This document shows, piece after piece, positions 2,512-32,003 of a DNA stretch of 64,000 nucleotides. Position numbers and translations under genes: made by a program. Source of the stretch: Terriglobia bacterium (GTDB lineage Bacteria; Acidobacteriota; Terriglobia; Acidiferrales; UBA7541); NCBI GenBank assembly GCA_963695545.1, contig OY968796.1, positions 2,944,001 through 3,008,000 of the forward strand, given 5' to 3'. The notes under the pieces are model-generated. The model saw only the letters and a list, made by a program, of their open reading frames with translations, was not told the origin of the DNA and ran no database searches. How positions within the stretch are numbered: position 1 is the first letter of the stretch; each line of letters opens with the position of its first letter.

Positions 2512-3594
2512 TTACTTTTCCCCGCCGCTCTCCTCACCGATCGCCTCGCCGGAGCTCGCCGTGTTGAATAGAAATTTCTCCTGCGTCACTTGATTGCTCG
2601 CGTCCACGTCAATCTCCGCGAACACGTTCCGCTCCGCGCGCGGCCCCGTATCGAATCGCAGATCGCGCAGCATCACGCGATGCCCATCACCCAGACCCTC
2701 GACGCGCGCCAAAGGGAACCGCGCGAATTTCAGGAACGCCGCGCCCACATCGCTCTGCTGTGCCGCTTCGAGCGCCGGCGATGCCTCCGCCTTATAGAAC
2801 ACCCGCGCTGATTCCGGATCGAAGGTCGCGCCCGCCGCGAACGACACATCGACCTCGTCGATCGTGTCGTCGGTATCGACTACGCCCGACCACGCGAGCG
2901 GCGACGCCGATTGCGGAAATGCCTCAGCCGTGTTGGCCGCTTCGCCGTGATACTCGCGCGCCGCAATCATCGCCGTTGCGCGCTTCTGCAGAATCAGCCG
3001 CCCGCTGCAGAACGCCGCGACCAGCGCCAGCGCCACCACCGCGCCCCGATCGACCGACTTCCGCTTCGACTTCGCGCCAATTTCCTCCGTGATCATCCGG
3101 AATAACGCGGGCACCAAAAGTCCCGCCAGCAGCAGAAACAGAATCCACGGATCAAGCGATGCCGTCAGATCCCACGCGAACCATCGCGCGCTAAAGGGCC
3201 ACAGCAATTTCACCCCGTAGCTATTCGTCAGATCGAGCAGCACATGCAACCCGCCGCCCGCCAGCGCCGCAAAAAACGCCGGCGCGAACCGCAAGGAATT
3301 TGTAGGGGCGGAGCTTGCCTCCGCCCGGTTTTGCCCCACGGGCTTGCCAAGTCGCCGCCCGATCACAACGAACGTCGCCGCGATCAGCGCGGCCAGAACC
3401 ACGATGCCCACCAGCGAATCCGTCGCCGTGCGATGCGCTTCCAGAAACATCCGCGCGCCGCCGAACACCGATAGCCAATCGAGCTCCGGCGCGAGCCCCG
3501 CCGTCACGATTATCGGCAGCGCCAGCGGCGTCACGCGCTTAAACCCGCAACGCGCGAGCGCCACCGAAGCCAGCACCTGCGTAATCGGTTCCAT
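2512..3594 (-). CDS. Inner-membrane metal-dependent hydrolase (YdjM-like)
   Basis: MEPITQ...APELDW...HRTATDS...LHVLLDLTNSYGVKLLWPFS and a C-terminal FARFP...RDLRF segment match the family layout. The start was moved to ATG 3594. Confidence 0.8.
   Translation of the reverse strand: MEPITQVLASVALARCGFKRVTPLALPIIVTAGLAPELDWLSVFGGARMFLEAHRTATDSLVGIVVLAALIAATFVVIGRRLGKPVGQNRAEASSAPTNSLRFAPAFFAALAGGGLHVLLDLTNSYGVKLLWPFSARWFAWDLTASLDPWILFLLLAGLLVPALFRMITEEIGAKSKRKSVDRGAVVALALVAAFCSGRLILQKRATAMIAAREYHGEAANTAEAFPQSASPLAWSGVVDTDDTIDEVDVSFAAGATFDPESARVFYKAEASPALEAAQQSDVGAAFLKFARFPLARVEGLGDGHRVMLRDLRFDTGPRAERNVFAEIDVDASNQVTQEKFLFNTASSGEAIGEESGGEK
3302..3326 (+). repeat. GTAG-type REP-like palindrome inside a CDS
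   Basis: GTAG-GGGCGGAG-CTTGC-CTCCGCCC: GTAG tetranucleotide followed by a perfect 8-bp stem. Confidence 0.6.
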
Positions 3595-3660
3595 CTCGCT
3601 TGAGGTTATCTCATAAGTGGCTTGCGTTCGTGCAAGTTCCGCTCCACGCTGTTGAAATTG

Positions 3661-6169
<2,509 letters not shown>

Positions 6170-6206: not shown

Positions 6207-7742
6207 ATGGCCGATCCGCAAGTGCTCATCGTGGGAGCCGGGCCAACTGGCCTCGTTCTGGCATTGTGGCTCGCGAAAGCCGGAATCCCGCTCCGCATCA
6301 TCGACAAAACGGACGCGCCGGGAACCACCTCGCGCGCCATTGTCATGCACGCGAGGAACCTCGAATTTTACCGTCAGTTGGGCATCGAGCGCTTTGCCAT
6401 CGATGGAGGCATTGAAGTCACGGCACTCAATCTTTGGCTGCGAGCTAAGCATGTCGCGCGCGTCTCCTTCGGCGAGCTCGGAATCAAGATCAGCGCTTAT
6501 CCCTACGCGCTGATTTTCACTCAGGATCTGCAAGAGCAGATGCTCGTCGAGCAATTGAAACTCGCCGGCGTAAACGTTGAACGCGAAACCGAGTTGGTCG
6601 ATTTCACATTCGATGGAAACGGCGTCAGCGCCGAGATACGCAAGAAATCCGGTGAGCGCGAAATTGTGAAGGCCGCCTACATCGCCGGCTGCGATGGCGG
6701 ACACTCGACAGTGCGCGAAAAGCTCGGGATTGATTTTCCCGGCGGAGACTACGCGGACACGTTTTACGTAGCCGACATTCGAGCGAGCGGCCCAGCCGTC
6801 AACGGCGATATGAATATCGCGCTCGATGAAGCCGATTTCCTTGCGATCTTCCCGATGAAAGGCGAAGGGAAAGCGCGCCTGGTTGGCGCGGTGCGGAAGG
6901 AACTGCAAGAAAAAAGAGATTTGCGTTGGGACGACGTGAGCCCCGTGATTCTTCGCGACCTCAAGATGAACGTCGAAGAGGTGAATTGGTTCTCAACCTA
7001 TCGCGTGCATCACCGTGTGGCAGCGCATTTTCAAAAGCAGAGAGCTTTCTTGCTGGGCGACGCCGCTCACGTGCACAGTCCCGTGGGCGGACAGGGGATG
7101 AATACCGGCATCGGCGACGCCGTAAATTTGGCGTGGAAATTGGCGGCTGTGCTGCAAGGAAATTCCGGCGTGGCGCTGCTTGAATCCTACGAATCGGAAC
7201 GCATCGCGTTCGCGCGGCGTCTGGTGGCCACTACGGATCGCGCTTTTTCTTTCGTCTCGGCGCGCGGGCGATTCGCGACGCAAATTCGGATTCGCATCGT
7301 GCCGCGATTGCTGCCCTTCCTTTTCGGATTCGCCGCCATGCGCCGTTTTCTGTTCCGGACGATTTCGCAAATCGCGATCAAATACTCCCAAAGTCCTTTA
7401 AGCCACGGACCAGCTGGAACGATTCGAGGCGGCGAGCGGTTGCCGTGGGTCCAGTTCACGGATGCCGGCGGCAAAACCACGGATAATTTCTCGAGCTTGG
7501 CGACGCGAGCGTGGCAGGTACATTGCTATGGCGATGCGGCGCCGGCGCTAAAAGCGATGTGCGACGCGCGCGCACTGCAACTCGAAATATTTCCGTGGAG
7601 CAGCGACGCGAAAGAAGCAGGCTTGAGAAAAAACGCCGCGTACGTCGTCCGGCCCGATGGATATATCGCCATCGCGGACCGCGATGCCGACCCGGCGAAA
7701 ATTTCCGCGTACCTCGATAGGTGGATGACGCCCGTCAATTAG
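6207..7742 (+). CDS. FAD-dependent aromatic-ring monooxygenase (PheA/TfdB/MhpA-like)
   Basis: IVGAGPTG, GCDGGHSTVR, LLGDAAHVHSPVGGQGMNTGIGDAVNLAWKLA and C-terminal VRPDGYIA. Confidence 0.9.
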   Translation: MADPQVLIVGAGPTGLVLALWLAKAGIPLRIIDKTDAPGTTSRAIVMHARNLEFYRQLGIERFAIDGGIEVTALNLWLRAKHVARVSFGELGIKISAYPYALIFTQDLQEQMLVEQLKLAGVNVERETELVDFTFDGNGVSAEIRKKSGEREIVKAAYIAGCDGGHSTVREKLGIDFPGGDYADTFYVADIRASGPAVNGDMNIALDEADFLAIFPMKGEGKARLVGAVRKELQEKRDLRWDDVSPVILRDLKMNVEEVNWFSTYRVHHRVAAHFQKQRAFLLGDAAHVHSPVGGQGMNTGIGDAVNLAWKLAAVLQGNSGVALLESYESERIAFARRLVATTDRAFSFVSARGRFATQIRIRIVPRLLPFLFGFAAMRRFLFRTISQIAIKYSQSPLSHGPAGTIRGGERLPWVQFTDAGGKTTDNFSSLATRAWQVHCYGDAAPALKAMCDARALQLEIFPWSSDAKEAGLRKNAAYVVRPDGYIAIADRDADPAKISAYLDRWMTPVN

Positions 7743-8049
7743 TCGGCGGCGGATCGTACGTGCCCATGGGGACCGAGCCGCGGCAGCGCCAGATGCGTTC
7801 CGCCGAAAGCACCAGGCCGCGGCGAATGCCGAATCTTTGCACCACGGCGACCGAATAGTGCGAGCACGTCGGGTTGTAGCGGCAACGAATCACCGAGTGC
7901 AAATGCGGACTGACATGCTCCTGATAAAGGTGGACCGCCGACACATATATATCGGCGGTCCACTGCCGCGAAGGGGCGCGGCAACTATCGAATGTAGCCG
8001 TTGCAATTAAGACGGCTATACAGGCCAGATAGGTTTCAGGCCGTTTCAG
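7735..8049 (-). CDS. yidD: Membrane protein insertion efficiency factor YidD (start uncertain, possibly CTG)
   Basis: YQ..VSP.....CRYNPTCSHYS..VQRFG...G..L...RIWRC......G.YDP.P signature. Confidence 0.8.
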   Translation of the reverse strand: MKRPETYLACIAVLIATATFDSCRAPSRQWTADIYVSAVHLYQEHVSPHLHSVIRCRYNPTCSHYSVAVVQRFGIRRGLVLSAERIWRCRGSVPMGTYDPPPTN

Positions 8050-8426
8050 GGATTGCCGCAGCTCGGGCACTTGGGCAGTCCTTGCATGCGCTTCTTGCCG
8101 CAGCTGCACACCACCAGTTCGCCCTTCGGCCGAATGATCAAATAGATCACCAGTCCGATCAGGCCGGTGAAGAGCACGATCACCGGCCACAGAATGGGAT
8201 TTTCCATGCCGCGCGCCGTGGCATCGTTTTTCACCCAGAGGAAAATCGCGACGTTGATGCCGATGACCACGGCCAGGAAAATCAAGGACCCAACGCAGCC
8301 GAGACCTGCGCAGGCGCTGGCGCCGGCCATGCCGTTATCGTTCATTTGCAGAAACAGCGCCGCCGCAAGCAGGGGAGTGCAGTGCGCGAGCGAAAAGCGT
8401 TTCATCTTGTTTGCTGGATCGGGCAT
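8046..8426 (-). CDS. Small membrane protein with PLDc_N-like TM hairpin and C-terminal zinc ribbon
   Basis: WVKNDATARGMENPILWPVIVLFTGLIGLVIYLIIRP followed by CSCG...CPSCG. GGAG upstream. Confidence 0.75.
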   Translation of the reverse strand: MPDPANKMKRFSLAHCTPLLAAALFLQMNDNGMAGASACAGLGCVGSLIFLAVVIGINVAIFLWVKNDATARGMENPILWPVIVLFTGLIGLVIYLIIRPKGELVVCSCGKKRMQGLPKCPSCGNP

Positions 8427-8780
8427 GAGACGTTTCCTCCGACGAACGTTTCTTTTTATCCGGCCTCGCTACCGAACGCGATCACCGCACGACCGCAACC
8501 GCTCGGCCTGTTTGGCCCGTGGGGTGGCGGGAGAATACCACTGGTTGTGGCCGTCGCAAAGCGCGAAATCGCTTTGGGTAAGCGCGCGCTCGGATCCGCC
8601 CCAGGCGTTCGGAGCGACACGATATATTTACGTGCGCGCGACGCTTGCAAACGATCGCGTTCCGTCCTAGGATGCGGCGCACTGACTAGCCTCACAGGGG
8701 GCAAACATCGCCGCCCGATTTGGAGGCGCGACTGGCGCCGTTTGAAATAAGCGCGCGCGGGCCGTTTGCGAGGAGGAAAC

Positions 8781-9567: not shown

Positions 9568-9657
9568 GACTCGACTTTCTTCAACTGAACTCGACTTTCT
9601 TCGAGTCAACTCCACTGAGTTCAAATCGATTCAACTGAGTTCGAGTCGATTCAACTG
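9568..9657. repeat. Degenerate 5-bp-period array (18 units) between convergent genes
   Basis: gactc gactt tcttc aactg aactc gactt tcttc gagtc aactc cactg agttc aaatc gattc aactg agttc gagtc gattc aactg, with a 20-bp higher-order period. Confidence 0.8.
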
Positions 9658-11048
9658 TTGAGGTCGAACGTCTGGCGATAGGCCGGAAGCACGACCTTCC
9701 ACTTCGGTCCCATCTTCGATTCAATCAGAGTTTTTAACGCTTGCGATGCGGCGGGCTCGCCGTGCGTTAGATAGGTGGTGCGCGGCGGCGCGGGCATGCC
9801 TCCGAGCCAGCGCAGGATTTCGCCGCGATCGGCGTGCGCGGAAAATTGGCCGAGGTTGACGACTTCGGCCTTCACCGCGACGTCCTGGCCGAGCAGGCGC
9901 ACGGATTTCGCGCCGTCTTGAAGCTGGCGGCCGGTGGTGCCTTCGGCTTGATAGCCGACAAGCAGGACGGCGTTGCGCGCGTCGGGCAGGCGCTGCACGA
10001 GGTGATGCATCACGCGGCCGCCGGTGGCCATGCCGCTGGCGGAAACGATGATGGCAGGCGTTTTCACGGCGTTGATTTGCTTCGATTCCTGAACGCTGCG
10101 CGTGAGATGCAGAGTGTGCGCATCGAGCGGATTGCCGAGGAGCGCGTCCTTGGCGAATTGCGCGCCCTGATCTTCACGATGCGCAAGATAAAGGCTGGTG
10201 ACGCTGATGGCCATGGGGCTATCGACATAGACGGGCAAGCGCGGAATGCGGCCGGAGTCTTCGAGTTGCCGCGTGATGTACATAATACTTTGCGTGCGGT
10301 CGACCGCGAACGCCGGAATCACAATTACGCCGCCGCGCTTGGCAACGCGATTGATAACATCGCCGATGGCGACGTCGGCGGGATCGGTGGGGTGATCGCG
10401 ATCGCCGTAGGTGGATTCGCAGAGCAGGACGTCGCAATTCGGCGGCGGCTCGGGAGTTTTCAGGATCAGATTGTTGTAGCGACCGATGTCGCCGGAGAAC
10501 ATAACCGTGGTGGTGCGGCCGTTTTCGGTGATGGTGAGTTCGATGTTGGTTGAGCCGAGGATGTGGGCGGCATCGCGAAGGCGCACCGTGAATTGCGGAC
10601 TGGTGGTGGAAACGCCTTCGCGCGGAATCGGCTTCAGGGCGGCGAGCACGGGCGCGACTTGTTCGTGCGTATAGAGAGGTAGCGGCGGATGGTGCCGGCT
10701 CTTTCCCATGCGCGCGTCGTCCTGCGCGTCTTCTTCCATGATGTGCGCGGAATCGGGCAGCAGGATGTTGACGAGCTCGATGGTGGCGGGATCGGCGAAG
10801 ATCGGGCCGCGATAGCCATCGCGCACAAGACACGGCAGCCAGCCGGTGTGATCGAGATGCGCGTGCGTGAGCACGACGAAGTCGATGGTGGAGACATCGA
10901 GCGGCTGGTGATCCCAATTGCGCTGGCGCAATTCGCGCGGGCCTTGAAATAGGCCGCAATCGAGAAGCAGTTTCTTGCCGGCTGCTTCGACCAGATATTT
11001 CGATCCTGTTACGGTGCCTGCTGCTCCGAGAAAGGTGATGTTGGCCAT
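9651..11048 (-). CDS. MBL-fold beta-CASP RNA-processing ribonuclease (Ysh1/CPSF-like)
   Basis: FLGAAGTVTGS, LDCG, THAHLDHTG, AHILGS, FSGDIG, ESTYGDR, PAFAVDR, SASGM..GGRV.HH, FSAHAD, THGE. Confidence 0.93.
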   Translation of the reverse strand: MANITFLGAAGTVTGSKYLVEAAGKKLLLDCGLFQGPRELRQRNWDHQPLDVSTIDFVVLTHAHLDHTGWLPCLVRDGYRGPIFADPATIELVNILLPDSAHIMEEDAQDDARMGKSRHHPPLPLYTHEQVAPVLAALKPIPREGVSTTSPQFTVRLRDAAHILGSTNIELTITENGRTTTVMFSGDIGRYNNLILKTPEPPPNCDVLLCESTYGDRDHPTDPADVAIGDVINRVAKRGGVIVIPAFAVDRTQSIMYITRQLEDSGRIPRLPVYVDSPMAISVTSLYLAHREDQGAQFAKDALLGNPLDAHTLHLTRSVQESKQINAVKTPAIIVSASGMATGGRVMHHLVQRLPDARNAVLLVGYQAEGTTGRQLQDGAKSVRLLGQDVAVKAEVVNLGQFSAHADRGEILRWLGGMPAPPRTTYLTHGEPAASQALKTLIESKMGPKWKVVLPAYRQTFDLNS

Positions 11049-11162: not shown

Positions 11163-11709
11163 GGCGGGCAGGCCGGGCGATCGCTGGGTTGGTTTCTTAG
11201 CAATAGGGAACTGGCCGGGAGGAAAGTCCGGACACCGTGGACTCGGGCCGCAAGGTCCGAACCTAAGGGCAACGCGCCTGGTAACGCCAGGGCGCCGGGC
11301 CGCAGAAATCGGGCGCGCAATGCGCGCCTGGGCGGAACGGCGACGGACAGTGCCACAGAAAATAAACCGCCGGTGCGGCGTTTCGGTGACGGCCGGGAGG
11401 AAAAACCTCTCGGAGGTCGCTATCAAAAATAGACGACGCGCATGGTAAGGGTGAAACGGTGGGGTAAGAGCCCACCGCGTCTCGAGAGATCGAGACGGCA
11501 CGGAAAACCCCGCGTGGTGCAAGGCCAAATAGGAGGGGAGGGCCGGCCCGGCCCGCAAGCGACGCATTCTTCGGAATGCGACGCCGTGACCCTCGGGTAG
11601 GCTGCTGGAGCCCGCGTGCGAATGCGGGCCTAGAGGAATGATTGCCACGGCGTGCGATTCTTTAGGGGATCGCGCGCCGCACAAAATCCGGCTTACAGGC
11701 CTGTCCGCC
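11163..11709 (+). ncRNA. rnpB: RNase P RNA (bacterial type A, expanded, ~547 nt)
   Basis: GAGGAAAGTCCGG (CR-I), AGTGCCACAGAAA, GGGTGAAACGGTGGGGTAAGAGCCCACCG, GCAAGGCCAAATAGG, TAGAGGAATGA and ACAAAATCCGGCTTA (CR-V). The ends GGCGGGCAGGCC / GGCCTGTCCGCC pair as P1. Confidence 0.96.
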
Positions 11710-11815
11710 ATCTTCTTTCGCCTCGGTTGAGGTTTGCTCCCGCGCGTTTCTTTTGTCCCCGATGTGTGCCGGCTGCGGGCGAAATCTTGCTTGCGAAACT
11801 CCATTTTGCTGGGGA

Positions 11816-12267
11816 GGGGGGTACACCCCCGGGTATGTTTTGCGTAAGAGCGGCAAACACAGGACTTGCAGGAAAAGAGTGACGAAGAGTGCGCAAGAGA
11901 TTGAAAACAGTCGGTTTGCGGACGTTTATTTTCAACGAGATGCGCACTCTTTTGCAGTCGACTGAACAGCAATGGCTTAGAGCTGCGGATATATACGCGT
12001 GAGTGCACTTTGATCGAATTGTATCGATGAAATTTGGTAGGGGGAGTAGGGCGAGAGGAAGCAAGCCTGCCTGAAGGTTGGCAGGCTTCGCCCACAGGCG
12101 CGGAAAATTCGCGAGCGCCGGAAGCGAGCCAGGCGCGGCAAGTTGGCGATGTGGCCTGCGGCGAGGGTACGCGTTTGCAGTTCATACCGAACGGTAGCAC
12201 AGCCATAGCGTACGTGTCAATAATAACATGTGGGTTATTCGAAAAGTCTGTGGAAATTCATTCGAAA
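11816..12267 (-). repeat. Dispersed intergenic element family 1, copy B
   Basis: Reverse complement matches copy C at 37/39 nt in the upstream box and 30/31 nt in the core TGCAAAAGAGTGCG(C/T)ATCTCGTTGAAAATAA. Also shares ATCGATACAAT and an AAAACATACC(C)GGGGGT end. Confidence 0.88.
12191..12220 (-). promoter_or_regulatory. sigma70-type promoter at the head of element copy B
   Basis: Minus strand TTGACA (12220-12215), 18 bp, extended -10 TGc-TACCGT (12196-12191). Confidence 0.65.
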
Positions 12268-12495
12268 TGTGGCGGGAAGCGAATCTGGAAAGCGAACTCA
12301 CCATCCTTTGCTTCGCAAAAGATGAACCGCCCTCGGGCCAAAGGCTGATCCACCCGCCATTACTCAATTTCGAGTGTTCAATTTTGCTCATCCTGCATGT
12401 GGTCAATTTTGGTCATCTAGACGGGTTTGTCCCACGGGTCTACGATTGCCGGGCGCTGGGCAAGTTTTCTGAGTTGATTGAAGGAGCACACCCGA

Positions 12496-13167
12496 ATGCC
12501 GAGTAAGCGCAGTCTCGGTGTCAGTCACGCAGCTCTCCGCAAAAAGTTCCGCAACGGGATGACTTATCGGAATTACCGAGACAAGGAGGTCGTCTTTTCG
12601 CAGGGGGATCCGGCTGATTCTGTTTTCTACGTCGAAAGCGGGACGGTAAAGCTGACGGCGGTTTCTACTCGAAAGAAAGCCATAATCGCCATCCTACAGC
12701 GAGGCAGTTTTTTTGGCGAAGGAAGTCTAACCGGGCAAGCTCTACGGATTTGCACGGCGAGATCAATTGGGCAATCCAACGTCATTCGACTGCAAAAGCA
12801 GAGGATGGCTCGCGTGCTCAAGAGAGACCCGCGCTTTGCAGCGCTGTTCGTCGGATATTTACTTTCGCGGGTGGTTCGAATCGAGGAAGACCTGATCGAT
12901 CAATTCTTCAATTTCAGCGAAAGGCGATTGGCGCGGGTTCTGTTGTTGTTTGGCGAAATAACCAAGGAATCGAAGTCGGATTCCCCTCTGAAGGTGAGCC
13001 AATCAACCCTGGCGGAGATGGTTGGTACCACCCGCCCGCGGGTAAGTAAATTCATGAACGAGTTTAAGAGGAAGGGCTTGGTCAGTTACAACGGAGGCTT
13101 GCAAATAAATAGCGCACTGCTCATAGCGTTCCTAGAAAATCGCCCGATGTCCGTCAAGAGATCATAG
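12496..13167 (+). CDS. Crp/Fnr family transcriptional regulator
   Basis: cNMP-binding domain (VFSQGDPADSVFYVESG.VKL...GSFFGEG) and HTH (SQSTLAEMVGTTRPRVSKFMNEFKRKG). AAGGAG RBS. Confidence 0.92.
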   Translation: MPSKRSLGVSHAALRKKFRNGMTYRNYRDKEVVFSQGDPADSVFYVESGTVKLTAVSTRKKAIIAILQRGSFFGEGSLTGQALRICTARSIGQSNVIRLQKQRMARVLKRDPRFAALFVGYLLSRVVRIEEDLIDQFFNFSERRLARVLLLFGEITKESKSDSPLKVSQSTLAEMVGTTRPRVSKFMNEFKRKGLVSYNGGLQINSALLIAFLENRPMSVKRS

Positions 13168-13215
13168 GTCCAGCCAGGTGGTCCCGGCTTTTCACACCAT
13201 GACCGTCGGACCGCG

Positions 13216-13590
13216 ATGCAGTGGAGTCAAGAGATGAAAATACAACACCAAACAAAAAAGGGAATATCTGCCGTGCCCTGTCCTACGTGTGGCGTCGCTG
13301 CCGGGAAGCGCTGCGTTCTGATCGCGGGCGGCCCACGAAACGAGCCACACTGGAACCGAAGGATCGCGGCGGCTGATGTTGTGGAAAAAGAAGAGGATTC
13401 GAACTCACCGATGAGACTCCGAAACGTGCCCTTCGCCCAAAAGAATAGAAGAGAGAAAAAATCGGACGCTGCATTCTTGGCGCTAATAGCCCGGGTGAGA
13501 AAGGAACTTGCGAGACCGCTGCTTACGAAGTCAGTCAGAGAGAGACGGCGGCAGAGGGACAGATCGAATCATGGAACGCAGATTAGTTGA
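13216..13590 (+). CDS. Small basic protein with putative CxxC-x7-C-x11-H zinc finger
   Basis: AVPCPTCGVAAGKRCVLIAGGPRNEPHWNRR. The start may be 13234. Confidence 0.55.
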   Translation: MQWSQEMKIQHQTKKGISAVPCPTCGVAAGKRCVLIAGGPRNEPHWNRRIAAADVVEKEEDSNSPMRLRNVPFAQKNRREKKSDAAFLALIARVRKELARPLLTKSVRERRRQRDRSNHGTQIS

Positions 13591-14386
13591 GCTTCGACAG
13601 CCCGGCTTTGAGGGATGGGTGTGCAGTGAGTGTGGGCACGTGTTCATAACGATGTTGGATTGCGTTCCCACTGGTCTGACGCTGGACGAGATTATCGGCC
13701 ATTTCAAAGTGCTGCGAGAGCAGGCTTTCGCCAAGCATCGGTGCCCGAGTTCTTGGGAAAGCCGAGGTTATCGAGAGACTGAAGTGGAAATCAGCAAAGC
13801 GAAAGCTGAACGCATGGGTTTGGACGGGTGGCCTGACCCGCCGAACAGTCAGTCTGCGCCGTATGAAAATCGCTCAGGCGTGATGGCGATGCCACACCAA
13901 ATCAACGCGAAGGAAGAGGAGAGGGTTTGTGCCGCCAAGGAGTATTGCGAAGGGTACGCCTACGGGGTTTGTGAGGGACGACGGTGTTCGGCGCCCAAAG
14001 CTGACGCAGGCCAACCTTCGTATCGAGCTGGATTCGCCAGGGGCGTCACCGCCGCGCAACGGACCAGACAGGGCGAATCATCCGCGGCGGGCGGCTCAAA
14101 AGATATCGCCTCTGACGCAGTTCGCCGTCCGGGGGACGATCGTAGGCCGCTGGCCCAAACTCTTACGGAAGAGCAGTCGAACGGAGGGCAATTCCCGCAG
14201 CGTGGTATCGGGGCGAGCGCAGAAAAAGGGTGGCAAGATATTTTACTGGAGCTGTACCGTCGCCTCCTATTGTTTGAAGACTTAGCCATTCTTGCAGCAG
14301 AGGAAGAGGCGGCGATCGAAGTCGTCCGCGCTGGAATCGTTAAGCGCCTCGCGAAAACCTGCGTGGTGCTGCCTATACCGGGATAA
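13571..14386 (+). CDS. Hypothetical protein; N-terminal ~60 aa is a CxxC...HxC module homologous to 60809-61021
   Basis: RRLVELRQPGFEGWVCSECGHVF...TLDEI...REQAFAKHRC. The remainder is low-complexity and may be several fused or decayed small ORFs. Confidence 0.5.
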   Translation: MERRLVELRQPGFEGWVCSECGHVFITMLDCVPTGLTLDEIIGHFKVLREQAFAKHRCPSSWESRGYRETEVEISKAKAERMGLDGWPDPPNSQSAPYENRSGVMAMPHQINAKEEERVCAAKEYCEGYAYGVCEGRRCSAPKADAGQPSYRAGFARGVTAAQRTRQGESSAAGGSKDIASDAVRRPGDDRRPLAQTLTEEQSNGGQFPQRGIGASAEKGWQDILLELYRRLLLFEDLAILAAEEEAAIEVVRAGIVKRLAKTCVVLPIPG

Positions 14387-31178: not shown

Positions 31179-31384
31179 GATTTGAATAATTCTAACGAGA
31201 CGCATGAATCACCGATGATACCGCGCGCGTTAAGCGCGAATCAAATGCGCGGCCCACCGGAGTTCCAGGAGTTGTTCCGGCGCACAAACACAGATGCGCG
31301 CGGCGTTCGCGGCGTTGCCGGGGCGGACGCGTCCGCGCTGGATTTCCCCCGTGGCCAAACGAGATATCCTCCCGACGAGCCCCG

Positions 31385-31806
31385 TTTCGAATGAATTTCC
31401 ACAGCCTATTCGAATAACCCACAAGTAATCGTTGACTGCTAGTTTGCAAGTCTGCTATCATTCAGCATGAGTTGCAAACGCCCGCCCTCGCCCCTGTCAG
31501 GGTCCCGGCCCATTCCTCGGGCGTCGGGGTTTCCGCATGCAGGAGCCGGAGCCTGCCTGCCGGCAGGCAGGCTTGTCTCCGCCCGCTTTTCCATCCCTGC
31601 CAAACATGATCGATACAATCCAATCGAGCCGCACTTATCTGCGCAAAAGTGCCCCTCCAACCCTTTTATTTTCAGCGGATTGCAAAAGAGTGCGTATCTC
31701 GTTGAAAATAATCGCGATCAAGTGGCTTTATCTTCACACTCATCCGCACTCTTTCGCCGCATCCACTTTATTTTCAATATTTTAACAAAAACATACCGGG
31801 GGTATA
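31385..31806 (+). repeat. Dispersed intergenic element family 1, copy C
   Basis: Matches copy B as described there. Contains the palindrome GCCTGCCTGCCGGCAGGCAGGC (31551-31572) and the hairpin AAAGAGTGCG...CGCACTCTTT (31685-31754). Confidence 0.88.
31432..31461 (+). promoter_or_regulatory. sigma70-type promoter at the head of element copy C
   Basis: TTGACT, 18 bp, extended -10 TGc-TATCAT. Confidence 0.7.
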
Positions 31807-32003
31807 TATACGTCTCACCGACCGCCGACCTAAGACATTACTTGAAGTTTGCGCGCCTCTACCCGGAAACCTCGGCCCATCAATCCCTTACGGCGCCTCA
31901 TTCGCGGCGACGCGATCGCCGCAGCGCGAGCAGCGCCAGCAACTCGCCAATGCCACTCGCCCCGCCCGCAGAGCCACCCGCGCGGCATGCTAAGATTCCC
32001 GCC

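Follow-up and report, generated by a model that had tools for sequence, protein, structure and literature searches.

The repeat which occurs in three copies within the window, i.e. the whole stretch of 64,000 nucleotides analysed here, belongs to a family of about 112 oriented and evenly spaced cassettes in the source chromosome (G000), a single 4.16-Mb contig containing the window. At more than 100 sites this short repeat appears to set the strand bias of its surroundings, over some 30 kb, in a chromosome showing no skew signal at dnaA. We place roughly even confidence in the reading that the cassettes are dispersed terminase-loading (pac-like) sites with a chimeric small terminase of their own. 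With somewhat more reserve we advance the wider claim that more than 100 such evenly spaced and oriented cassettes, together with a small terminase (TerS) that combines a zinc finger with a TerL-docking tail repeatedly borrowed from a domesticated phage head, amount in these soil Acidobacteria (Ca. Acidiferrales) to a programmed, chromosome-wide and self-spreading exchange of DNA in which transfer or break-primed replication has replaced the strand bias of oriC. Either of the two leading readings, the second being that of auxiliary replication origins, would come as a surprise, namely programmed starts for the packaging of host DNA or a bacterial chromosome with many origins. For gene transfer agents (GTAs), near-random packaging is the prevailing view. 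The cassette map would predict the ends of particle DNA or the peaks of replication in an abundant soil lineage. No description of the element was found in the literature searched, mostly main texts of openly available articles; the part of PMC5900883 that treats prophages and insertion sequences of Acidobacteria does not mention it.

The sequence-only reading had located three copies with a common order of modules in the window, and both their places and this order are confirmed in the sequence (Table 1). Alignment of copies B and C reproduces the reported identity of 37 out of 39 positions in the upstream box and of 30 out of 31 in the core, and a TTGAC(A/T) element with a spacer of 17 or 18 bp matches, as judged by sequence consensus, at the same position in A, B and C. 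The long hairpin ascribed to the core exists in B and C but not in A, which is devoid of the AAGAGTGCG arm. The GCCTGCC..GGCAGGC palindrome is present as well, but as an optional insert which also matches places outside the cassette list. Beyond the features then described we observe an ATG or GTG just past the -10 box, an open frame, a DnaA-like box, an even spacing of the copies, a flip of strand bias and a zinc-finger gene.

Table 1. Positions of cassette modules and associated features (window numbering unless G000 is given).
Feature	Position	Strand	Remark
Copy A, whole cassette	3649..3925	+	short subfamily without inverted arm
Copy A, degenerate DnaA-like box	3649-3657	+	
Copy A, TTCGAA boxes	3662-3667, 3733-3738	+	
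Copy A, promoter TTGACA-17-TATACT	-35 3682-3687, -10 3705-3710	+	predicted from consensus match
Copy A, leaderless GTG	3716	+	frame open, continues into ligA
Copy A, A-tract repeats	near 3828-3838 and 3880-3889	+	
Copy A, G-run end	3909-3925	+	
Copy B, whole cassette	11816..12267	-	
Copy B, upstream module	12238..12266	-	TTCGAA 12261-12266, DnaA-like box 12248-12256, TTCGAA 12238-12243
Copy B, sigma-70-type promoter	12191..12220	-	TTGACA (12220-12215), 18 bp, TACCGT (12196-12191); predicted from consensus match
Copy B, leaderless frame from ATG 12185	11816..12185	-	open across repeats and G-run; product not conserved
Copy B, optional REP-like palindrome	12065..12086	-	in variable segment; counterpart in copy C 31550-31573
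Copy B, repeat core	11854..11972	-	four A-tract repeats and inverted pair; putative protein-binding (pac-like) role
Copy B, A-tract repeats	R1 11962-11972, R2 11925-11934, R3 11901-11910, R4 11854-11863	-	R2 inverted
Copy B, inverted pair	11943-11951 / 11885-11893	-	
Copy B, G-run end	11816..11834	-	
Copy C, whole cassette	31385..31809	+	
Copy C, boxes	TTCGAA 31386-31391, DnaA-like box 31396-31404, TTCGAA 31409-31414	+	
Copy C, promoter TTGACT-18-TATCAT	-35 31432-31437, -10 31456-31461	+	predicted
Copy C, start codon ATG	31467	+	
Copy C, repeats	31664-31776	+	
Copy C, G-run	31796-31809	+	
DNA absent from G003 and G004 at site C	31323..31980	+	approximate, ~650 bp; cassette plus unique flanks
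Origin-like GC-skew flip	7500..8500	.	approximate place; copies A and B both point at it (2-kb profiles)
rnpB (RNase P class A)	11165-11711	+	Rfam match
Phage-head cluster	G000:C1:3384000-3413000 (L039, L040)		~30 kb; TerL, major head protein, lytic transglycosylase
Small gene of head cluster	G000, spanning tail match 3,395,096-3,395,170		102-aa ORF
Optional 20-bp motif	G000 463810, 640082, 2975812, 3196788, 3611010, 3868868, 3936286		sites with the motif

Copies A and B are no artefact of long-read assembly since short-read contigs, stemming from four soil runs of one study and perhaps from the source sample itself, reproduce them: with 0 differences these contigs cover copy A (3300-4802) and part of copy B (11927-12665). 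The frames of the three copies run in phase into ligA (A), a gene encoding an MBL-fold protein (B) and aroA (C), that of copy B crossing rnpB in antisense before it enters the MBL-fold beta-CASP gene (9651-11048). An in-frame fusion to host genes was nevertheless rejected as a general property, as 17 of 56 cassettes are in phase genome-wide, chance being one third. Next to cassette B lies a region with a gene of the Crp/Fnr family (12375-13745) which gives DNA matches of 76-84% at two places in G016, a member of another genus, and no match of that size in congeners. This segment is, by its sequence, probably a recent acquisition.

The earlier guess of a high copy number in the genome is borne out. 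BLAST and iterated nhmmer retrieve 90 3' cores from G000, and a model of the 5' module, which also recovers the family of 90, adds a second subfamily whose core consists of two to four tandem repeats with a period of 39 bp. The resulting catalogue of 112 holds 84 full cassettes, 22 of the second subfamily or represented by the 5' module only, and 6 for which the 3' core was the sole basis of entry; a weakly scoring 5' module was tolerated in one copy on account of its repeats, and one match at E 0.93 was dropped. The cassettes are divided 56/56 between the strands. Their gaps have a coefficient of variation of 0.57, compared with 0.99 in 20,000 uniform draws (minimum 0.71) and 0.98-1.01 in 10,000 draws from the 1,646 intergenic spacers (minimum 0.71), and pairs less than 20 kb apart are depleted (21 versus about 60 expected). 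The cores are on average 66% identical, nearest neighbours 80%, which marks the family as old. Local copying was rejected since the most similar copy lies at a median distance of 1.09 Mb, as at random. G000 yields 50 matches to a strict promoter pattern, and two congeners yield 29 and 33. Across the order, 34 of 121 genomes show the pattern at least once; reversed as a control, it matches once.

Throughout the family the order of elements is DnaA-like and TTCGAA boxes, promoter, leaderless start, variable segment, A-tract repeats and G-run. Each cassette carries one to three TTCGAA palindromes, and 143 of the 153 (T/A)TTCGAATA sites in G000 lie at cassettes. Control by LexA is not supported: the boxes of the cassettes are spaced 9-10 and, as far as TTCGAATA is concerned, near-confined to them, whereas the lexA promoter has ATTC-N7-ATTC. 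The latter is found upstream of a lexA-like gene near G000:C1:2228518 and resembles GTTC-N7-GTTC, which we take to be the corresponding box of Acidobacteria. The predicted promoter has the form TTGAC-17/18-TAnnnT and, according to a rule of our own, is followed 3-6 bases past the -10 box by ATG or GTG in 95 of 112 cassettes. Of the 92 copies with a defined G-run end, 83 have no stop codon between this start and the G-run; in the same set, the other sense frames are open in 5 and 12 copies, compared with 2-3 for antisense frames and 4.6 for shuffled sequences. Among the open copies, 33 pass through the conserved core in one phase and 25 in another; hence, it is the open frame which is kept and not a peptide, and judged from its sequence the putative cassette transcript looks like a translated leader. 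The variable segment often contains REP-like palindromes. In the core, four A-tract repeats, one of them inverted, are combined with a near-invariant inverted pair at fixed spacing, the commonest distances among 74 cores being 37 for R1-R2, 24-25 for R2-R3, 40 for R3-R4 and 60-61 for the arms. The terminal TAC-(C/G)-G-run-TRTA form is present 55 times in the genome, 55/55 at cassettes. A G-run motif beside dnaA was discarded as a chance occurrence, being present in G000 only out of 6 genomes aligned.

The conserved stems had been taken to indicate a structured non-coding RNA, a proposal to which the stems themselves lend no support. In the 74 cores (score >100, out of 90) which formed the test set, compensatory changes number 1 in the outer stem and 25 in the inner stem, with 1.1 and 24.3, respectively, expected from independent columns. 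Covariation is thus at chance level, A-C mismatches (141) outnumber G-U pairs (56), and RNAalifold provides no consensus structure for these cores. The strongest couplings between columns are subfamily markers. The near invariance of the arms limits the power of the outer-stem comparison; the inner stem varies freely without covarying. Single copies do fold well (z -5.8 for copy B; mean over 40 cores -2.9 in sense and -2.2 in antisense), on both strands since the core is an inverted repeat. As the sequence-only reading had surmised, no known Rfam family is concerned: rnpB is the sole match in the window, two matches at E 2-4 are ascribed to chance, and 6 further loci yield 0 matches at E 0.1. 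A multi-copy RNA with the long hairpin as its working part, which would account for the conserved promoter position, the near-invariant inverted arms and the folding of single copies, is therefore very improbable, the more so as copy A and the subfamily with the 39-bp period are devoid of the hairpin and the putative 5' end coincides with a start codon whose frame is under selection. The cassette is probably not an RNA gene. Conceivably, the CCCH protein described below could bind the hairpin in the nascent RNA; CCCH fingers often bind RNA.

That the repeat is a dispersed, non-autonomous mobile element agrees both with its 112 copies and with the existence of filled and empty sites between species, and at ligA, aroA and rnpB, the sites singled out beforehand, occupancy differs between genomes. 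At site A, G003 has a copy of another subfamily, and none is found in G001, G002, G004 and G005. At site B, beside rnpB, this subfamily is absent from 5/5 congeners, G004 possessing a related repeat array. G003 and G004 have no cassette at site C, and the DNA they lack there exceeds the conserved core; neither a clear terminal inverted repeat nor a clear target duplication is seen, the empty sites being about 80% diverged and a degenerate likeness of 15 bp at this site being of doubtful meaning. The three window copies share no inverted pair from end to end, their 5' and 3' modules being unrelated. Comparison with 312 kb of G003 was possible at 7 G000 sites. Three of them are empty there and the other 4 carry a cassette on the same strand, at least 3 of these cassettes belonging to another subfamily; hence, sites persist and their content is exchanged. 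In the flanks of the 90 copies there is no common integrase, att or replication gene, the sole common gene at the same position being the zinc-finger ORF. The cassette models give 1 weak match among 120 pattern loci and 0 at 80 TerL loci (viral collections), and the phage and plasmid records searched contain no match. In one further genome (G024, locus L010) a tyrosine-recombinase-like frame, recognised by eye, directly follows the 3' end of rnpB, which suggests rnpB as an integration site there.

The cassettes are surrounded by a strand bias, which we determined as GC skew at fourfold synonymous positions, using our own gene calls and genes of either strand. Between -6 and +2 kb the cassette strand has an excess of C (-0.3); the skew passes through zero near +4 kb, and an excess of G (+0.17) is reached at +10 to +13 kb, in a like manner for both gene strands. 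Negative skew is observed for 105 of 112 cassettes (null mean 56, maximum 69), and of 78 origin-like flips, 64 lie within 10 kb of a cassette that points at them (null mean 20, maximum 33), the flip being located at a median of 3.8 kb downstream (10-90% range 2.3-6.5 kb); 14 flips lack a cassette and 43 cassettes lack a flip of that size. The shift mainly concerns G versus C, in all 12 contexts, and extends to 10 kb upstream of the promoter. Within the window, a single flip near 8 kb is the target of both A and B, and the C-rich zone of copy C is followed by no clear G-rich arm. Skew strength does not differ between open and closed frames (83 versus 9, P 0.53), and no flip exists at the small-terminase gene of the phage-head cluster; both results count against the packaging reading discussed below. 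In relatives the skew follows each genome's own copies. Using the kernel fitted to G000, and with neighbouring genes not being independent, orthologue skew in G001 (111 genes) loads 0.83+-0.16 on its own cassettes and 0.09+-0.10 on those of G000, while in G003 (160 genes) the loadings are 0.77+-0.11 and 0.49+-0.12, respectively. At site C, empty in G003, the sign is reversed (aroA -0.21 versus +0.29).

One explanation for such a pattern would be that the cassettes are selfish, non-autonomous mobile promoters of the MITE or REPIN kind, whose open frame avoids Rho polarity on neighbouring genes, whose skew is a by-product of strong transcription, R-loops or supercoiling, and whose zinc-finger gene is a passenger or regulator. 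The filled and empty sites would suit it, as would the REP-like palindromes in or beside copies, the REP-associated transposase-like genes near some of them and the first downstream gene lying on the same strand for 79 of 112 cassettes. We consider it unlikely. Terminal inverted repeats or a clear target duplication are missing, and the frames are as open where the next gene is on the opposite strand (25/27) as where it is not (58/65). Moreover, the skew reaches far upstream, is alike on both gene strands and barely tracks gene layout (a tie of the flip to the first opposing gene was rejected at rho 0.19, P 0.08), and both the terminase tail and the even spacing would be left without explanation. 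As to the transposase-like ORFs, which we presume to be of the REP-associated family, they are located near 1,198.8 kb and 1,475.7 kb in G000, 1-2 kb from three closely related cassettes. Palindromes of the GTAG type of REP are abundant in many G000 spacers and, in the window, at 3300-3335.

More serious, albeit still rather unlikely in our judgement, is the possibility that the cassettes are auxiliary or parasitic replication origins which, like iteron replicons, combine a DnaA box, methylation-like palindromes, a promoter, iterons and a small initiator gene, and in which cassette transcription would open the duplex or prime bidirectional forks a few kb downstream, be it during normal growth or in a Bartonella-like amplification feeding particles. 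The polarity of the flips is that of an origin, and G000 displays no chromosome-wide skew and no flip at dnaA, with scans for dif, KOPS and gene orientation revealing no replichore signal although dnaA and its boxes are intact. The even spacing resembles origin interference, and a model running from origin to origin alone accounts for 40% of the skew variance. In addition, the DnaA-like box, CTGTGGA(A/T)A in either orientation, is likely the DnaA box of the lineage, since it is conserved upstream of dnaA in 6/6 genomes aligned. Exact copies lie at cassettes in 32 of 69 cases in G000, 49 of 92 cassettes contain it with at most one mismatch, and the general DnaA consensus is met in 43 of 92 cassettes compared with 4.7% of control spacers. 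Bartonella, according to the part of PMC2697382 dealing with it, couples run-off replication to its GTA. The presence of a DnaA box, however, does not predict skew (P 0.95), and the dnaA region retains conserved DnaA boxes. Further points against origins are the position of the flip, 2-8 kb away from the cassette instead of at it, and the inequality of the arms (-0.33 on the cassette side versus +0.17), the stronger of which fades by about 20 kb even in long inter-cassette gaps, these being flat in the middle. Cross-validated R2 is 0.40/0.49 for finite-range models and 0.35/0.42 for origin-to-origin models, a small advantage. Finally, the small protein carries a terminase-type tail and matches no initiator family, and G022 combines many cassettes with little skew. 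By analogy with Bartonella, as far as PMC2697382 describes it, packaging and origin readings can be combined.

A possible link to packaging is the gene found behind some cassettes. Four of those in G000 lead via a ribosome-binding site into an ORF of 139-170 aa with a CCCH finger and a helical hairpin; most cassettes have no such gene. Its profile matches 2,010 clusters, and the protein matches no Pfam, PHROG or Rep family. Homologues occur in genomes labelled Ca. Acidiferrales or Acidobacteria gp2, in relatives mostly behind the same layout (37 of 65 loci match the cassette models), and none is present in the viral contigs searched. The structure model (pLDDT 73, pTM 0.43) contains the helical hairpin, and a fold search with it finds generic helical hairpins at best (Z 6.9), with no viral match at E 0.001. 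The tail of three of the G000 zinc-finger proteins matches a small gene in a phage-head cluster (Table 1), the TerL and major head protein of which are assigned by PHROG, its portal, for which the library contains no match, presumably being the gene of fitting size and place. The cluster is conserved and single-copy, about half of the searched family genomes possessing it; among 41 genomes, TerL occurs once in 15 and the major head protein once in 14, with capsid identities of 55-92%. The small gene is 9 kb from TerL in G000, and homologues are located directly upstream of TerL in G008, G015 and G020; its Atlas look-alikes include tailed-phage proteins and, at 0.92, DUF5681. REP pairs occupy nearly every spacer of the cluster, which also harbours an IS3-like ORF pair at 3,400-3,401 kb and a tRNA-like stretch near 3,387.3 kb.

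When the 3,224 predicted G000 proteins are scored with a profile of 24 zinc-finger tails taken from other genomes, the top places go to the three zinc-finger proteins and the small gene of the cluster (scores 16-22), the next protein reaching 5.9. In TerL loci, taking the best of several ORFs per locus and with the loci being related, the ORF upstream of TerL outscores each of the 6,435 control ORF ends in 17 of the 64 usable loci (of 80) and exceeds the 99th percentile in 25 of them; the TerL contigs from viral collections may be pieces of host genomes instead of free phages. Tails match within the same genome in G000, G003 and G020, not in the G008 and G015 copies examined, and a second tail type is likewise common to both kinds of gene (L422 and L470 versus L376 and L381). 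In lambda and P22, TerL is bound by the C-terminal end of TerS, whose middle part forms a helical hairpin, as stated in the relevant part of PMC9611059. A predicted complex of TerL with the tail reaches 0.57 versus 0.00 for the best control, a mark which 116 of the 157 solved pairs and 2 of the 215 mismatched ones attain, with 18 of the solved and both of the mismatched pairs at or below 0.60; contact agreement is at least 56% and partner pLDDT at least 49. This model weakly supports a docking of the tail to TerL. By sequence, the zinc-finger protein has a TerL-docking-type tail in common with the TerS recognised by position.

On these grounds we suggest that the zinc-finger protein is a chimeric small terminase, supplied in trans by the few full copies, which would bind the A-tract repeats and dock TerL through its tail. 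The strong promoter and the translated leader would keep RNA polymerase moving through the repeats, shielded from Rho. The motor may then cut at a variable point a few kb downstream of the cassette, and packaging would run back across it, carrying both flanks along. In recipients, homologous recombination could spread the cassette or swap its subfamily, and the skew might be left by strand-specific handling of fragments or by replication primed from cut ends. Sites may interfere with one another over 20-30 kb, which would account for the even spacing. Analogies are offered by the coupling of terminase loading to transcription in T7-like phages, for which the literature searched gave no confirmation, and by the single-strand uptake of GTA DNA.

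Several observations speak against packaging. Zinc-finger gene and TerL do not co-occur above chance: in 24 family genomes, counted by hand, the former is present in 14, the latter in 13 and both in 6 (7.6 expected); ten genomes gave no match in a search with a TerL alignment run without positive control. The pac cuts of known phages fall near the site, at least as treated in part of PMC9611059, and the literature searched holds no precedent for a cut 2-8 kb away. The packaging reading does not account for the first arrival of a copy at a new site. Relatives, whose skew was taken from stretches of 100-400 kb, are divided. With a standard deviation of skew of 0.23 in G000 as reference, G022 (0.09; many cassettes, no head cluster found) and G016 (0.07; head cluster, no cassette) fit the packaging reading, and G015, with zinc finger and head cluster, reaches 0.25. 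G018 (0.24-0.26; no head found), G017 (0.24; head cluster, no cassette found) and G021 (0.19; neither found) do not fit unless the helper has been lost, is unassembled or external, the cassettes are too diverged or the blocks arise from rearrangement. The G018 assembly (100% complete, 90 contigs) comprises 12 zinc-finger matches, with neither TerL nor capsid found. G001, with few cassettes, has a broken TerL and a standard deviation of 0.16, and skew is still present at 4/4 of its cassettes. Skew blocks of 20-40 kb without a model-detected cassette are visible in G017:C3:1000-1300 kb and G021:C3:1-200 kb.

Compared with known systems, the cassette seems to work like a pac/TerS module and, judged by its features, to be no member of PICIs or MITEs. 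With the headful pac sites and small terminases of P22 and SPP1/SF6, as covered in part of PMC9611059, it shares a putative DNA-binding head, a predicted helical hairpin, a tail of the TerL-binding type and AT-rich repeats beside the gene. It differs by a CCCH zinc finger in place of a helix-turn-helix, by some 112 chromosomal sites, most of them without the gene, and by a cut that would occur kilobases away. A comparison can also be made with PICIs such as SaPIs, satellites that redirect the helper's motor with their own TerS, and with lateral transduction. A small element with a TerS-like protein that would direct a motor to itself and to flanking host DNA is the common trait, whereas the cassette has no integrase, replication genes or att site, measures 0.3-0.9 kb and exists in more than 100 copies; its likely helper would be the resident conserved head cluster. 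BaGTA of Bartonella, in the portion of PMC2697382 concerned, likewise unites a conserved single-copy head cluster with chromosomal sites that would bias the host DNA packaged, but there it is one phage-derived origin, and here about 112 oriented sites with a putative dedicated adaptor. MITEs, REPINs and putative mobile promoters, the last as presented in part of PMC3575422, are also short, intergenic, promoter-bearing repeats polymorphic between species, from which the cassette, where neither terminal inverted repeats nor a clear target duplication were found, is set apart by its even spacing, selected open frame and oriented skew. The iteron replicons P1, F and lambda ori share with the cassette a DnaA box, repeated palindromes, a promoter, repeats in a translated frame, a small gene downstream and origin-like skew; the cassette, in contrast, is chromosomal and non-autonomous, the zinc-finger ORF in the Rep position of that layout matches no Rep family, no Rep domain was found, and its flip is displaced by kilobases.

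Two minor observations concern G000 itself. In some cassettes, copy C included, an additional 20-bp motif containing a short inverted repeat lies 15-40 bp past the G-run; its sites are given in Table 1. Furthermore, G000:C1:1707117-1708068 contains a tandem pair of 130-aa ORFs with 81% DNA identity.
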